From IMG/VR virus record IMGVR_UViG_3300029653_000099: a stretch of 6,604 nucleotides of DNA; one strand, given 5' to 3'. The notes beneath the pieces are model-generated. The model did not search any database. It saw only the letters and a list, made by a program, of their open reading frames with translations, and was not told the origin of the DNA. Shown here in pieces: positions 233 through 6,014 of this stretch. This stretch comes from a virus. Lineage: Duplodnaviria; Heunggongvirae; Uroviricota; Caudoviricetes. The position numbers and the translations under genes were made by a program. Positions within the stretch are counted from its first letter, which is position 1; every line of letters starts with the position of its first letter.

Positions 233-946
233 ATGTTGCGTCGGTCCGGGGCCGATGTTCTGGAAACCACTCTTCTGGAAAAGTCTCTTTCTCATCTCCT
301 TATGCTGGAGAACGCCAGGGATACGTGTATTCGCCTGGTGCAGGAAATGCGCGATCAGCAAAAAGACGATGATGAAGGTACTCCGCCTGAATACCGTATC
401 GCGAGCATGCTAAACAGCTGTTCCGCGCAGATAAGCAGCCTGATCAACACCATTTACAGCATCCGGAATAACTATCGAAAAGAAAGCCGGGAGGCGGAAA
501 AGCACGCTTTGTCTATGGGGCAAGCTGGCATTGTTAAGCTGGCATACGAACGAAAGCGTGAAAATAACTGGTCAGTGCTGGAAGCGGCTGAATTCATCGA
601 GGCGCATGGAGGAAAAGTGCCGCCCCTGATGCTGGAGCAAATCAAAGCCGATCTGCGTGCTCCTAAGACCAATACCGATGATGAGGAAAACCAAACAGCA
701 TCTGGCGCTCCATCACTTGAAGATCTGGATAAAATCGCGCGAGAACGGGCCGCCAGCCGCCGCGCTGATGCGGCATTGTGGATTGAGCATCGTAGAGAAG
801 AAATTGCCGATATCGTCGATACAGGTGGTTATGGTGATGTCGATGCGGAAGGCATATCAAACGAAGCATGGCTTGAACAGGATCTGGACGAAGACGAGGA
901 GGAAGACGAAGAAGTTACCCGCAAACTGTACGGGGATGATGATTAA
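233..946 (+). CDS. pacA: Terminase small subunit PacA-like, C-terminal portion (237 aa from the first ATG; frame open from 131)
   Basis: Sits immediately upstream of pacB with a TAATG stop/start overlap at 944..948, typical of coupled terminase subunits. The acidic C-terminal tail ([11 protein letters not shown]...GDDD) is typical of small terminase subunits. Synteny with P1 pacA-pacB. The frame is closed upstream by TGA at 128..130 and 41..43, so the gene is either interrupted or shorter than the P1 protein as I recall it. Confidence 0.55.
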
Positions 947-2430
947 TGGCCAGAAGTTGCGTAACGGACCCACGTTGGCGCGAGCTTGTGGCGCTATATC
1001 GTTATGACTGGATTGCGGCCGCTGATGTGTTGTTTGGGAAGACACCAACCTGGCAGCAGGATGAGATCATTGAGTCCACGCAGCAGGACGGCAGTTGGAC
1101 AAGTGTGACCTCCGGCCATGGTACTGGTAAATCGGATATGACGAGTATCATTGCAATACTCTTCATCATGTTTTTCCCCGGCGCTCGCGTCATTCTGGTC
1201 GCTAACAAAAGACAGCAAGTCCTTGATGGTATTTTCAAATACATAAAGAGCAATTGGGCTACTGCTGTTAGCAGATTCCCGTGGTTGTCGAAGTATTTCA
1301 TTCTTACAGAAACGTCTTTTTTTGAGGTGACTGGCAAGGGTGTTTGGACAATATTGATAAAGTCCTGTCGCCCCGGAAATGAGGAGGCGTTGGCTGGTGA
1401 ACACGCCGATCATCTCTTGTATATCATCGACGAAGCGTCGGGTGTGAGTGATAAAGCATTCAGTGTGATAACAGGTGCGCTGACCGGTAAGGATAACCGT
1501 ATTCTGCTTCTTTCCCAGCCTACGCGACCTTCAGGCTATTTCTACGATTCACACCACAGACTAGCTATTCGCCCGGGAAATCCTGATGGATTGTTTACTG
1601 CGATAATACTGAATAGTGAAGAATCTCCGCTTGTAGATGCAAAATTTATACGAGCAAAACTTGCGGAGTATGGCGGTCGTGATAACCCCATGTACATGAT
1701 CAAAGTACGTGGTGAATTTCCCAAATCTCAAGATGGCTTTCTTCTTGGTCGTGATGAGGTTGAGCGGGCGACGCGGCGAAAGGTCAAGATTGCCAAAGGA
1801 TGGGGCTGGGTTGCATGTGTTGACGTTGCTGGTGGCACAGGACGAGATAAGTCCGTTATTAATATCATGATGGTGTCCGGCCAGCGAAATAAACGCCGTG
1901 TAATCAACTATCGTATGCTGGAATACACAGACGTTACAGAAACGCAGTTAGCCGCCAAGATTTTCGCAGAATGTAACCCAGAACGGTTCCCGAACATAAC
2001 CATAGCTATTGATGGCGATGGCTTGGGGAAATCGACGGCTGATCTAATGTACGAACGCTATGGCATTACCGTCCAGCGTATCCGCTGGGGTAAAAAGATG
2101 CACAGCCGTGAAGATAAAAGCCTTTATTTCGATATGCGCGCTTTCGCGAATATTCAGGCGGCAGAAGCTGTAAAATCAGGGCGTATGCGGCTTGATAAGG
2201 GGGCTGCGACTATAGAGGAAGCATCAAAGATACCGGTAGGGATAAATTCCGCAGGTCAATGGAAGGTGATGTCAAAGGAAGATATGAAGAAAAAACTCAA
2301 CCTGCACTCACCGGACCATTGGGATACATATTGTTTCGCTATGTTGGCGAACTATGTTCCCCAAGATGAAGTGCTTAGCGTCGAAGACGAAGCGCAGGTT
2401 GATGAAGCTCTGGCATGGCTTAATGAATAA
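946..2430 (+). CDS. pacB: Terminase large subunit PacB (494 aa), ATPase plus nuclease
   Basis: 494-aa ORF matching the length I recall for P1 PacB. Walker A-like P-loop (SGHGTGKS) and Walker B-like (LLYIIDEAS) near the N-terminus, acidic residues in the C-terminal half consistent with an RNaseH-like terminase nuclease. Start overlaps the pacA stop. Confidence 0.88.
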
Positions 2431-2455: not shown

Positions 2456-3307
2456 CTATTGCGCGCTTTCGGGGTTGCTGTTTACTGGCTGCCCCTTCTT
2501 AGTTTTACGGCTGCGCGTAACTGATGCGGCTGATTTGACCTTTTTCTCTTCGCGAGTGATGGCAATTTGTTTTTTTACATTTTCAATATCTGCCAGGCGA
2601 TATATTTTTGCCTGCGGCCAGCGGTCGCAGATGATCGGTTCTATAGAGTCATAAAGGCTAAATTTTGCTTTCTCGAATTTCCCGTTGATGATGATTCCAT
2701 CACGGAGAGTTTCATCGCAGATAAACACACCACACAGCGGCACATGGTAACTAACTGATTTACCATCATTGTAGTTAGGGCTACTGGAAATGTAATGGAC
2801 GCGCAACATTGTTTCGCTAAAGCCGTGTACACGCATACGGAATTTTTCATCCTCCGGGTACTGCTTCATTAGCTCTTTTGTTGCTTCCAGGTTCTCTATG
2901 TATTTCGCACTGTGCTCATTGATCCCCGCGCTTTTCTGGATGCGAATGTCCTTATCAATCAGATGAATAATGCGGCCAGCGGTCATGTTGACGCTGTTCA
3001 CAGCTTCTGTCTGATAAGTTGTAACCTTACGCACACCGCGAAGGATGTTAGGCACTGGATATAAAATAGTCTTTGGGATATTGAGGTCTGGGTACTGTTC
3101 CAGTTCCCGCGCCATTAAAGTCCATTTATCAATTTCAGCCTGAATGCTGTCCGTTTCTTTGAACGGCAGAACGACAACCGGGCGAACAGGACGACCGTCG
3201 CTGGCGGCATCAACGTGTTGGGCGCGTGCAACAGCTTTTTTTAGAAAGAGATCCCTGAAGCTGACGAACTCCTGGTACAGTTGTTCGCCGTAGACATAAT
3301 TTATCAT
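2456..3307 (-). CDS. c1: C1 repressor of lysogeny (283 aa), immC
   Basis: 283-aa ORF convergent with pacB. Length and N-terminus (MINYVYGEQLYQEF...) match my recollection of P1 C1. Strong RBS GGAGGAGGA 6 nt upstream of the ATG on the minus strand. Lies next to coi and loxP-cre as in P1. Confidence 0.88.
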   Translation of the reverse strand: MINYVYGEQLYQEFVSFRDLFLKKAVARAQHVDAASDGRPVRPVVVLPFKETDSIQAEIDKWTLMARELEQYPDLNIPKTILYPVPNILRGVRKVTTYQTEAVNSVNMTAGRIIHLIDKDIRIQKSAGINEHSAKYIENLEATKELMKQYPEDEKFRMRVHGFSETMLRVHYISSSPNYNDGKSVSYHVPLCGVFICDETLRDGIIINGKFEKAKFSLYDSIEPIICDRWPQAKIYRLADIENVKKQIAITREEKKVKSAASVTRSRKTKKGQPVNSNPESAQ

Positions 3308-3329
3308 TGATCCTCCTCCAGAATTGACA

Positions 3330-3372
3330 TGGCCAACAACTCACAGCGGATTACACTGGGAGTTGTTGGCCA
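3330..3372. repeat. Perfect 13-bp inverted repeat (TGGCCAACAACTC / GAGTTGTTGGCCA) with a 17-nt spacer, in the coi-c1 intergenic region
   Basis: Arms at 3330..3342 and 3360..3372 are exact reverse complements. No T-tract follows on either strand, so it is not a canonical intrinsic terminator. Confidence 0.85.
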
Positions 3373-3374
3373 CC

Positions 3375-3418
3375 ATTATAGAAGGATCCAACGAAAATAA
3401 TAGATTTATTAGTGCATT
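3375..3418 (-). promoter_or_regulatory. Putative c1-proximal sigma70 promoter (-10 TATAAT on the minus strand at 3375..3380) with an overlapping C1-operator-like site (AATGCACTAATAAATCT, 14/17, minus strand 3402..3418)
   Basis: Perfect TATAAT hexamer on the minus strand about 70 nt upstream of the c1 start. Operator-like 17-mer overlaps the -35 region and the coi stop codon. The -35 hexamer itself is weak. Confidence 0.35.
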
Positions 3419-3627
3419 TATTGTGAGTCTGGCTGGTTAGTGGCCATGAGATATTCGATTGTGTCAGTGAGATCATCCAGGTCGTCTTGGGTGATGCGGT
3501 ACTCCTGATTGGATATCTTTGAGTAGTGTTCAGCAATGGCGCGGGCAGCGTCGGTTTCGGCGGGGTCTACAGATAAAGCGTTAGAGCAATGTCTAACGTC
3601 GTCGATGGTTGGTGGAATGAAAGCCAT
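3418..3627 (-). CDS. coi: Coi, C1 inactivator (69 aa)
   Basis: 69-aa ORF directly upstream of c1 on the same strand. Length and position match P1 coi as I recall it. RBS GTGAGG 7 nt upstream of the ATG on the minus strand. Confidence 0.8.
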   Translation of the reverse strand: MAFIPPTIDDVRHCSNALSVDPAETDAARAIAEHYSKISNQEYRITQDDLDDLTDTIEYLMATNQPDSQ

Positions 3628-3820
3628 AATTATGCCTCACTGTATTGACAACACAGAGCCTGAAGCTCTGACCTACTGTTTCACCCATGATCCATGCTGG
3701 GGTAATCCTACAACATTGCGCTGTGTGTAAGATGAGCAATGCATAGCTGTAATGCCGTTGTATAAGGTTTCCCTGTTTGCTCATTTCCTTCTGAGCCGCT
3801 CTACAACGCTGAAGACACAT
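3593..3820 (-). CDS. Possible small ORF in the imcA/imcB position upstream of coi (75 aa; alternative internal start at 3784); coding status doubtful
   Basis: Only ORF over 60 aa on the minus strand between coi and the operator-bearing promoter. Overlaps the coi start by 35 nt. No convincing RBS (GAAGGAA abuts the internal ATG with 1-nt spacing). Cys/Trp/His-rich composition atypical of a real protein. Confidence 0.2.
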   Translation of the reverse strand: MCLQRCRAAQKEMSKQGNLIQRHYSYALLILHTAQCCRITPAWIMGETVGQSFRLCVVNTVRHNYGFHSTNHRRR

Positions 3821-3858
3821 TAAATAGTGAATCCAAAGTTGTATTACGAAACGGCGGC

Positions 3859-3888
3859 AAAACTATAATTTATTAGAGCAATTGTCAA
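3859..3888 (-). promoter_or_regulatory. Putative immC promoter driving coi-c1: -35 TTGACA (minus strand 3883..3888), near-consensus C1 operator ATTGCTCTAATAAATTA (minus strand 3866..3882, 16/17) in the spacer, -10 TATAGT or TAGTTT
   Basis: Perfect -35 hexamer directly abutting a 16/17 operator match, followed by a -10-like hexamer at 15 to 17 bp spacing. Oriented toward coi and c1. Operator consensus is from recalled P1 literature. Confidence 0.5.
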
Positions 3889-3948
3889 ACAACTATGAAA
3901 AACAATCCAGTTTTTGGCTGGTGGAGTGGGATTTTTCTCTCAAAATTT

Positions 3949-3965
3949 ATTGCTCTAATAATTCT
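3949..3965 (+). promoter_or_regulatory. C1 operator copy ATTGCTCTAATAATTCT (15/17), inverted relative to the 3866..3882 copy
   Basis: Direct sequence match to the asymmetric operator consensus. Forms a back-to-back pair with the minus-strand copy 66 bp away. Confidence 0.6.
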
Positions 3966-4008
3966 TGATTTTTATGCGCAGCTGGACGTAAACTCCTCTT
4001 CAGACCTA

Positions 4009-4042
4009 ATAACTTCGTATAGCATACATTATACGAAGTTAT
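4009..4042. other. loxP: loxP site-specific recombination site (13-bp inverted repeats ATAACTTCGTATA flanking the 8-bp spacer GCATACAT)
   Basis: Exact 34-bp match to canonical loxP. Lies about 420 bp upstream of the cre start, as in P1. Confidence 0.97.
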
Positions 4043-4060
4043 CTTAAGGGTTATTGAACA

Positions 4061-4154
4061 TGATCAATTTACCTGTAAATCCATACAGTTCAATACCTTA
4101 TCAGGTCAAATAGTGATCACTTGATCATTTGATCAAGGTTGCGCTACGTAAAAT
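4061..4154 (+). promoter_or_regulatory. Dam-site cluster and putative cre-region promoter: four TGATCA hexamers (4061, 4114, 4122, 4130), the last three at exact 8-bp spacing, overlapping the -35 region of a -10-like TAAAAT (4149..4154)
   Basis: GATC at 4062, 4115, 4123 and 4131. Recalled literature describes cre promoters regulated by Dam methylation. The -10 and -35 assignment is my own reading. Confidence 0.45.
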
Positions 4155-4460: not shown

Positions 4461-5492
4461 ATGTCCAATTTACTGACCGTACACCAAAATTTGCCTGCAT
4501 TGCCGGTCGATGCAACGAGTGATGAGGTTCGCAAGAACCTGATGGATATGTTCAGGGATCGCCAGGCGTTTTCTGAGCATACCTGGAAAATGCTTCTGTC
4601 CGTTTGCCGGTCATGGGCGGCATGGTGCAAGTTGAATAACCGGAAATGGTTTCCCGCAGAACCTGAAGATGTTCGCGATTATCTTCTATATCTTCAGGCG
4701 CGCGGTCTGGCAGTGAAAACTATCCAGCAACATTTGGGCCAGCTAAATATGCTTCATCGTCGGTCCGGGCTGCAACGACCAAGTGACAGCAATGCTGTTT
4801 CACTCGTCATGCGACGGATCCGAAAAGAAAACGTTGATGCCGGTGAGCGTGCAAAACAGGCGCTGGCGTTCGAACGCACTGATTTCGACCAGGTTCGTTC
4901 ACTCATGGAAAATAGCGATCGCTGCCAGGATATACGTAATCTGGCATTTCTGGGGATTGCTTATAACACCCTGTTACGTATAGCCGAAATTTCTAGGATC
5001 AGAGTTAAAGATATCTCACGTACTGACGGTGGGAGAATGTTAATCCATATTGGCAGAACGAAAACGCTGGTTAGCACCGCTGGTGTAGAGAAGGCACTTA
5101 GTCTGGGGGTAACTAAACTGGTTGAGCGATGGATTTCTGTCTCTGGTGTGGCTGATGATCCGAATAACTACTTGTTTTGCCGTGTCAGAAAAAATGGTGT
5201 TGCCGCGCCATCTGCCACCAGCCAGCTATCAACTCGCGCCCTGGAAGGGATTTTTGAAGCAACTCACCGATTGATTTTCGGGGCTAAGGATGACTCTGGC
5301 CAGAGGTACCTGGCCTGGTCTGGACACAGTGCCCGTGTCGGAGCCGCGCGAGATATGGCCCGCGCCGGAGTTTCAATACCGGAGATCATGCAAGCTGGTG
5401 GCTGGACCAACGTAAATATTGTCATGAACTATATCCGTAACCTGGATAGTGAAACAGGGGCAATGGTGCGCCTGCTGGAAGATGGCTATTAG
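4461..5492 (+). CDS. cre: Cre tyrosine site-specific recombinase (343 aa)
   Basis: 343-aa ORF, near-identical to P1 Cre as I recall it (MSNLLTVHQNLPALPVDATSDEVRKNLMDMFRDRQAFSEHTWK...), with the cognate loxP site upstream. A few apparent substitutions relative to the canonical sequence (for example LQRP vs LPRP, IAEISRI vs IAEIARI, LIFGA vs LIYGA, C-terminal GY vs GD); these rest on memory. Confidence 0.97.
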   Translation: MSNLLTVHQNLPALPVDATSDEVRKNLMDMFRDRQAFSEHTWKMLLSVCRSWAAWCKLNNRKWFPAEPEDVRDYLLYLQARGLAVKTIQQHLGQLNMLHRRSGLQRPSDSNAVSLVMRRIRKENVDAGERAKQALAFERTDFDQVRSLMENSDRCQDIRNLAFLGIAYNTLLRIAEISRIRVKDISRTDGGRMLIHIGRTKTLVSTAGVEKALSLGVTKLVERWISVSGVADDPNNYLFCRVRKNGVAAPSATSQLSTRALEGIFEATHRLIFGAKDDSGQRYLAWSGHSARVGAARDMARAGVSIPEIMQAGGWTNVNIVMNYIRNLDSETGAMVRLLEDGY

Positions 5493-5984: not shown

Positions 5985-6014
5985 ATTGCTCTAATTGATT
6001 GCTATAATTGAGCC
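5985..6014 (+). promoter_or_regulatory. C1-controlled ref promoter region: operator-like ATTGCTCTAATTGATTG (5985..6001, 14/17), overlapping second partial copy ATTGCTATAATTGAGCC (5998..6014), and extended -10 TGcTATAAT (6000..6008)
   Basis: Perfect TATAAT with an upstream TG, inside two overlapping operator-like repeats about 95 nt upstream of ref. Consistent with recalled C1 repression of ref through operator Op2. Confidence 0.55.

Follow-up and report, generated by a model that had tools for sequence, protein, structure and literature searches.

The inverted repeat between coi and c1 in the immunity region of phage P1 is very probably the DNA image of a selected, cis-acting stem-loop formed by the c1-sense (minus) strand RNA. 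It was analyzed in a 6,604-nt stretch of viral DNA (IMG/VR record IMGVR_UViG_3300029653_000099; hereafter the window), which is the immC/lox-cre region of P1: positions 3200-3700 are 100% identical to P1 (AF234172 93975-94475), phiW39 and SJ46. The repeat lies upstream of c1, the gene of the primary repressor, and downstream of coi, the gene of the C1 inactivator, next to the proximal c1 promoter Pc1. On comparative grounds the evidence for a functional element is strong, and a role of this element in the balance between C1 and Coi is plausible. The best explanation as a whole, to which the comparison of sequences lends a moderate probability, is that the hairpin would give the different classes of c1 transcripts different repressor yields.

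A previous sequence-only reading of the window had singled out a perfect 13-bp inverted repeat with a 17-nt spacer, and the two arms at 3330-3342 (TGGCCAACAACTC) and 3360-3372 (GAGTTGTTGGCCA) are indeed exact reverse complements of each other. A repeat search extends them to 17-nt arms (3330-3346 and 3356-3372) with one mismatch and a 9-nt gap. Folded as RNA, the P1 hairpin has a free energy of -31.5 kcal/mol (z -8.3), and the minus strand of the surrounding region (3420..3300) reaches -46.4 kcal/mol (z = -7.0). Such a repeat is rarely produced by chance. A perfect 13-bp inverted repeat with a spacer of 3-50 nt was held by 13 of 3000 dinucleotide-preserving shuffles of the window (0.43%), and the shuffled windows contain 0.0057 such repeats on average, so that the earlier chance estimate of about 0.003 was of the right order. 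The real window holds two, the hairpin palindrome and loxP.

The position of the repeat was also described correctly. It lies in the coi-c1 intergenic region just upstream of the c1 start and adjoins a perfect minus-strand TATAAT, which is annotated in AF234172 as the -10 hexamer of Pc1. The hairpin sits in a 67-nt leader between this hexamer and the c1 ribosome-binding site, with the helix beginning 1-2 nt past the -10. The 22 nt that separate it from the c1 ATG consist of a short A/U-rich stretch followed by the c1 Shine-Dalgarno (SD) sequence. It is located between coi and c1 on their sense strand, downstream of annotated promoters, and is the only structured element between the two genes. 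A scan against Rfam (E <= 10) found no family match, the best hit scoring 19.2 bits against a gathering threshold of 60 (E = 2). The hairpin is not annotated in the AF234172, P7, P7 immC and phiW39 immC records, and the accessible P1 literature makes no mention of it, although it may have been described in older P1 papers.

Relatives of the region were gathered by tblastn, from the protein database and by looking up contigs. The 151-nt region has matches in 702 PLSDB plasmids, including 334 at >=99% identity and 339 at 80-90%. The latter group corresponds to the RCS47 type, in which c1, coi, the operator, the promoter and the SD sequence are nearly identical to those of P1 (98.9% identity for C1). 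Between P1 and the RCS47 type (L010), 19 of the 42 positions in 3333-3374 differ, compared to 0 differences in 3243-3332 and ~3% in c1 and coi. The hairpin therefore stands out as a sharply bounded divergence hot spot, represented by two main alleles that are about equally common among the 702 plasmids. The RCS47-type arms (GGTCAGTAATGACCGG and CCGGGCGTTATTGACC) fold in the same register as those of P1. In an alignment of 10 distinct P1- and RCS47-type leaders, 92% of the cells are paired and 6 of the 20 pairs have changed on both sides. The covariation score was reached by none of 500 shuffles, and slid registers pair only 27-52%. The sequence-only reading had suggested that P1-like genomes be compared for conserved arms and compensatory changes; the arm sequences turned out not to be conserved, whereas their pairing is kept by double-sided changes.

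Altogether seven hairpin types were distinguished (P1, RCS47, JK004/Klebsiella, Salmonella Newport, L101, L106/L110 and L109), carried by elements with C1 proteins that are 71-99% identical. The more distant relatives, with C1 at 71-79% identity, include JK004/Klebsiella, Salmonella Newport/Kisarawe, L101/L111, L106/L107, L110 and L109. TATAAT is invariant in all seven types and is followed after 0-3 nt by a stable hairpin, whose full helix comprises 16-20 pairs in every type. The hairpin sequences are unrelated among the types, with free energies of -22 to -31.5 kcal/mol and z-scores of -3.0 to -8.3 against dinucleotide shuffles. Two further compensatory pairs distinguish L106 from L110. When nine lineages were combined in a non-structural alignment, RNAalifold returned a consensus helix with double-sided changes in 5 of 8 pairs, and the L042 variant closes the single mismatch of the helix. 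Pairing kept by compensatory and wobble changes, by which a cis-regulatory RNA can be recognized, is thus found here. Of the earlier proposal that an RNA structure modulates c1 translation or stability, the structure is borne out by covariation in the seven hairpin types, while the effect on translation or stability is a prediction. Other searches added no hairpin types: a genome contig search with C1 returned near-identical loci only, a pattern scan of viral contigs gave nothing new, further protein look-ups led to the known types again, and a pattern scan of metagenome contigs yielded one real match out of 51, the rest being mostly chance A+T-rich matches.

The pairing is specific to one strand. 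In 8 of 9 representatives, RNA of the c1-sense strand folds more stably than antisense RNA, for instance with -24.5 versus -13.5 kcal/mol in RCS47 and with -26.5 versus -14.6 and -26.9 versus -16.9 in others, because G.U pairs become A.C mismatches on the other strand. Four natural single substitutions keep pairing in the sense RNA only; they are of the types C to U (such as those at 3369 and 3362) and A to G (as in the 3' arm of RCS47). A G-to-A substitution in L164 converts a G.U closing pair into A-U. As duplex DNA, the RCS47 repeat is an imperfect palindrome (13/16).

These observations bear on two explanations that would place the symmetry in the DNA. The sequence-only reading had offered the repeat as a binding site, at which a dimeric regulator other than C1 would recognize the 13-bp half-sites and control c1 transcription. 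The P1 symmetry is perfect, and its place immediately after the -10 is one at which a bound protein would obstruct RNA polymerase. However, the half-sites are not kept even in close relatives and are unrelated in the seven types, whereas C1, Coi and the flanking promoter and operator are conserved; the extensive difference between P1 and RCS47 exists despite nearly identical repressors. RCS47 and other types are symmetrical only when G.U pairs are counted, and their opposite strand folds far less well. The C1 operator is asymmetric, as had been stated, and no match to its consensus within 3 mismatches overlaps 3329-3373. Alternatively, the palindrome might be functionless, its symmetry coming from template-switch correction of quasi-palindromes or from an imported recombination patch. 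Template switching can make double-sided changes without selection, and the P1/RCS47 difference is a sharply bounded patch. It would create Watson-Crick symmetry, though, and not a strand-specific G.U pattern; the hairpin also keeps its place relative to the -10 and the SD in seven sequence-unrelated types, and the chance expectation per window is as low as the shuffles indicate. Because the pairing pattern is strand-specific and the arms are variable, both a sequence-specific protein site and a symmetric DNA-level process such as template-switch correction are very unlikely. We consider the protein site extremely improbable and the functionless palindrome highly improbable.

A point absent from the sequence-only reading is that the predicted Pc1 start falls inside the 5' arm, which yields two transcript classes with different versions of the hairpin. 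Since the helix begins 1-2 nt after the -10, two promoter-dependent hairpin forms are expected. In P1, the full helix of read-through RNA is predicted at about -31 kcal/mol and the shorter hairpin of Pc1 RNA at -15 to -21 kcal/mol; the truncated Pc1 forms have 12-15 pairs. With a start at any of nt 6-9, the Pc1 RNA of all eight lineages considered would leave 0-2 nucleotides unpaired at its 5' end and retain a hairpin of -10 to -24 kcal/mol. Compared with random hexamers, the six bases that separate the -10 from the predicted start show unusually high complementarity to the 3' flank of the hairpin. The fraction of the 4096 hexamers that match as well or better equals 0.0017 for P1, 0.014 for RCS47, 0.006 for L106, 0.003 for L110 and 0.0005 for L109, the last of which has a perfect 12-pair stem from nt 1 after the -10. 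Fisher's combined p for the seven types is 1e-7, a value that, like the other combined p-values given below, overstates independence, as the lineages are related.

Because pairing extends to the bases that precede the predicted start, the full helix can form only in RNA from the coi promoters. The pairing of these bases implies that the full helix is selected in a molecule containing them, which is RNA initiated upstream, and the full helix probably matters in read-through RNA. Promoter P1coi, which is controlled by C1 through Oc1d, is a source of the read-through coi-c1 RNA and P2coi is a possible second source. The P1vir RNA-seq papers give no transcript end mapping. According to published work, c1 is co-transcribed from P1coi, C1 is made from both P1coi and Pc1 while Coi is made from P1coi only, and the two proteins neutralize each other 1:1 (PMC8546580).

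Because of this 1:1 neutralization, a coi-c1 transcript would need a device that skews its outputs. We propose that the hairpin uncouples the output of C1 from that of Coi by giving the two classes of c1 transcripts different fates. In read-through coi-c1 RNA, the full helix would lower c1 expression, perhaps as a double-stranded site of RNase III-type processing or decay and, in some lineages, by keeping the c1 SD and AUG paired with an anti-SD segment encoded in the spacer; read-through transcripts would then deliver a net surplus of Coi. In transcripts from Pc1, the shortened hairpin at the 5' terminus would shield the message from 5'-end-dependent decay and the ribosome-binding site would be open, so that C1 would be favored in the lysogen. 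A helix of nearly two turns that drops to 12-15 pairs in Pc1 RNA fits an RNase III-type discrimination of the two RNAs, and its length is at the borderline of what an RNase III site requires (double-stranded RNA that is mostly regular over ~20 pairs). A device that blocks C1 synthesis from P2coi RNA would be needed all the more in view of the LexA box of this upstream promoter; SOS-induced P2coi RNA could run through lox, imcA, imcB and coi towards c1. Differential stability or translation in this form is put forward tentatively, as a mechanism that may or may not be the one by which the hairpin acts and that we would not yet call probable.

The anti-SD segment is a candidate feature of the Pc1 spacer that is present in read-through RNA only. 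In the minimum-energy fold of P1 read-through RNA, 3394-3380 forms an outer helix with the c1 SD and AUG that encloses the hairpin, and this outer helix was present in 11 of 12 representatives. Shuffling of the spacer reproduces this in 6% of cases for P1 and 5.5% for RCS47, with the other lineages not significant. Compared with random upstream segments, SD accessibility has p values of 0.05-0.1 in six lineages, and the others show no signal (Fisher p 0.005). The duplex energy in P1 is -17.4 kcal/mol (p = 0.017 against random 30-mers), with p = 0.045-0.08 for L105, L106, RCS47 and L104 and Fisher p of 0.008-0.02 overall. A suggestive parallel comes from a distant clade that has no long hairpin, whose long RNA, unlike the short one, pairs its SD and start codon with sequences located at the proximal -10 or upstream of it. 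If the hairpin did clamp the spacer/-10 anti-SD segment on the c1 SD and AUG in coi-promoter transcripts only, Coi-encoding RNAs would be translationally silent for C1, and Pc1 RNAs, which start downstream of the anti-SD segment, would be open. The same DNA would then serve as a promoter for one transcript and as a translational silencer in another, which would explain how a single operon delivers net antirepressor in the lytic decision or upon SOS induction. The controls support the clamp moderately, with about half of the lineages contributing a signal and the rest none; the clamp can therefore be treated only as a tentative sub-mechanism, and we rate such promoter-gated translation as rather unlikely.

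Several points weigh against the proposed working of the hairpin, in addition to the relatedness of the lineages. The Pc1 start is predicted from the -10, and a start unusually near the -10 would weaken the idea of two forms. Variants L057 and L007 break one outer pair, and L038 and L177 widen the internal loop beside the mismatch; hence not every hairpin pair is essential. The distant C1 clade mentioned above (53-59% identity) lacks the long hairpin, which is therefore not a feature of all C1-type switches. The anti-SD pairing, clear in P1, RCS47, L106, L104 and L105, is absent in Newport, L101, L110, L109 and L102, and RCS47-type variants carry uncompensated changes in the anti-SD segment. 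Finally, the effects on stability, cleavage and translation are predictions drawn from sequence.

Two further explanations accept the RNA hairpin and assign it a different role. As an attenuator or terminator, it would stop or pause P1coi and P2coi transcripts after coi and leave c1 to be expressed mainly from Pc1. A strong G+C-rich hairpin is present in the right place, its full stem exists in read-through RNA only, and RNA-seq of an hfq mutant showed coi but not c1 to be up at 10 min (bioRxiv 10.64898/2025.12.28.696737). The L106 lineage has UUUAGUUUUUU after the stem (about 940-990), and short U runs occur nearby in Newport, L101 and JK004. Nevertheless, L106 alone has a clear U run. P1, RCS47, L110 and L109 have no U-tract, and the tail, which in P1 is UGUCAAUUCU, is not conserved. 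The sequence-only reading had likewise seen no standard terminator here: in P1 neither strand carries a U-tract behind the stem, and a scan for terminators makes no call in P1, L106 or JK004. The 18-20-pair stem also exceeds those of typical intrinsic terminators, and c1 is treated as co-transcribed from P1coi (PMC8546580). A canonical terminator was rejected for lack of a U-tract and of a conserved tail, and attenuation in the broader sense is distinctly unlikely. As a separate observation, the stem and UUUAGUUUUUU of the Salmonella lineage L106 are terminator-like, and its sister lineage L110 has no U run.

The hairpin could also matter solely as the 5'-terminal stem-loop of the Pc1 mRNA, a stabilizer for which pairing upstream of the start would be incidental or would cover variable starts. 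This agrees with the few unpaired 5' nucleotides and the stable hairpins predicted in eight lineages for starts at nt 6-9, and with the clustering of pair-breaking variants in the outermost pairs (L057 and L007). It leaves unexplained the complementarity of positions 1-6 after the -10 to the 3' flank, including the 12-pair stem of L109, and a protective 5' hairpin of the ompA stabilizer type is not known to need 18-20 pairs. Stabilization as the only role is unlikely. A hairpin that distinguishes read-through from Pc1 transcripts is the reading that we retain.

Genes were placed from the list of open reading frames (ORFs) and the P1 annotation (AF234172, 535 features). Window coordinates equal AF234172 coordinates minus 90775; past the end of the record at lox, they equal the record coordinate plus 4025. 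The features are collected in Table 1.

Table 1. Position of the hairpin, promoters, operators and genes in the window
Feature	Position	Strand	Basis or remark
pacB	946-2430	+	ORF list, P1 annotation
c1, primary repressor, 283 aa	2456-3307	-	ORF list, AF234172, PF27008
c1 ribosome-binding region	3304-3319	-	SD GGAGGAGGA 3319-3311; ATG 3307-3305
Full stem-loop of c1 leader RNA	3329-3373	-	20 pairs, one C.U mismatch, 5-nt apical loop
3' arm of RNA	3330-3346	-	CUGUGAGUUGUUGGCCA
5' arm of RNA	3356-3372	-	UGGCCAACAACUCCCAG; first 4-6 nt upstream of predicted Pc1 start
Predicted Pc1 start	3367-3369	-	predicted, 6-8 nt after -10; inside 5' arm
Pc1 -10 hexamer TATAAT (Pc1 formerly P99a)	3375-3380	-	AF234172 annotation; alignments
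Candidate anti-SD segment, Pc1 spacer (tentative)	3380-3394	-	UCGUUGgAUCCUUCU; only in read-through RNA
Bivalent C1 operator Oc1ab (formerly Op99a,b), overlapping Pc1	3391-3418		annotation; consensus match 3402-3418
Pc1 -35, TCTATT, weak consensus match	3399-3404	-	AF234172 annotation
coi, C1 inactivator, 69 aa, upstream cistron of read-through transcripts	3418-3627	-	ORF list, AF234172
imcB, imcA			upstream of coi; P1 annotation
Promoter P1coi (formerly P99d) with operator Oc1d 3866-3882	3859-3888	-	annotation, operator match, PMC8546580
loxP	4009-4042		13-bp arms, 8-nt spacer
Promoter P2coi with LexA box 4071-4090	4066-4093	-	AF234172 positions 41-68, converted
cre	4461-5492	+	ORF list, P1 annotation

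Some further observations concern the hairpin itself. An ATG formed by TATAAT and the following G opens an 11-codon ORF (MVANNSQCNPL, 3341-3376, minus strand) across the hairpin. It was rejected as a leader peptide, since it has no SD and is missing or different in other hairpin types. Codons 7-10 of c1 (3279-3289) hold a near copy (10/11) of the hairpin 5' arm, as compared with 3331-3341; pairing between this copy and the 3' arm freed in Pc1 RNA could enclose the ribosome-binding site. The alternative pairing is not kept in the RCS47 type and is probably due to chance; we discarded it.

Other observations relate to the promoters, operators and origin of the region. The -35 of Pc1 was not called by a strict promoter scan. 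Matches to the 17-bp asymmetric C1 operator consensus (ATTGCTCTAATAAATTT) were found in the window at 3402-3418, 3866-3882, 3949-3965 and 5985-6001, and a C1-operator-like site with 3 mismatches (TTTGCTCGTATAAATTT), unannotated in AF234172 and possibly due to chance, lies inside pacB (1642-1658, minus strand). Within coi, a 7-pair stem with a T-rich tail (3579-3598, minus strand) overlaps operator Oc1c and represents the sole terminator-like call in 3000-4100. The distant clade (L102, L104 and L105) has a palindromic double operator (CTCTAAAAAAATCAATTTTTTAGAG) and a TACTAT -10 about 150 nt before the c1 homolog. GATC (Dam) sites occur in the Pc1 spacer (3384-3389, GGATCC) and between the c1 SD and ATG (3309-3312). 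The spacer GATC recurs in most, not all, lineages, and the promoter of the distant clade has two. The C1 protein of the window shares 98.9% identity with C1.100 from the reference P1 record and 99.6% with the C1 proteins that many plasmid prophages encode, and the window therefore seems to derive from a P1-like element other than the sequenced c1.100 strain.

In P1, the lysis-lysogeny switch is governed by the C1:Coi ratio, Coi being a 1:1 inactivator of C1, and current quantitative models subtract coi mRNA from c1 mRNA (PMC8546580). A conserved RNA element between coi and c1 would add a promoter-dependent, post-transcriptional layer to these models. The arms at 3330-3372 offer a mutable target for studying how P1-like phage-plasmids, which often carry resistance genes in E. 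coli and Salmonella, set the C1:Coi ratio. The hairpin also provides a clear natural case of rapid compensatory evolution, with ~45% of its positions differing and its flanks differing at ~3% or less.

The hairpin resembles several known systems; the leader and intercistronic stem-loops and the lambda cI arrangement among them are not homologs. It adjoins Oc1ab in the same control region but, in contrast to the C1 operators, has no consensus match. With intrinsic terminators it shares a G+C-rich stem, a 5-nt loop (3-8 nt being usual) and a position at the end of a gene, here coi; unlike them, it has no U-tract, which would be expected within 0-2 nt of the stem, in P1 and most lineages, and its 20-pair stem is longer than the usual 5-14 pairs. 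The 5' untranslated region of ompA is the type of the 5'-terminal stabilizing stem-loops of E. coli mRNAs reportedly described by Emory, Bouvet and Belasco. As in that type, where the hairpin lies within about 2-4 nt of the mRNA 5' end, the Pc1 RNA is predicted to begin inside the helix, which would leave 0-2 nucleotides unpaired at the 5' end in every lineage, and the structure is kept while the sequence is free. The helix, however, extends past the predicted start in the upstream direction and is longer than is needed for protection.

Phage hairpins processed by RNase III include the intercistronic sites of T7 and the lambda N leader site that governs N translation. The P1 element is likewise an intercistronic helix of ~18-20 pairs with an internal mismatch that closely precedes a ribosome-binding site within a regulatory operon of the phage, although it is at the short end for RNase III and has no sequence resemblance to those sites. 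Intercistronic stem-loops also set differential mRNA stability in bacterial operons, such as the repetitive extragenic palindromic (REP) element of malE-malF and the stem-loop of the pap operon. The P1 hairpin resembles these in being conserved in structure and variable in sequence between cistrons whose products are needed unequally, but it is not a repeated REP element and it overlaps an internal promoter. For lambda cI, the PRE and PRM mRNAs differ in their 5' ends and translation, the PRM mRNA being leaderless and the PRE mRNA well translated. P1 c1 similarly has a distal promoter and a proximal one under autoregulation, and the two RNAs differ in leader structure. In contrast to lambda, the proximal RNA of P1 keeps an SD and a 5' hairpin, the distal RNA also encodes the antirepressor, and the two systems share no homology.

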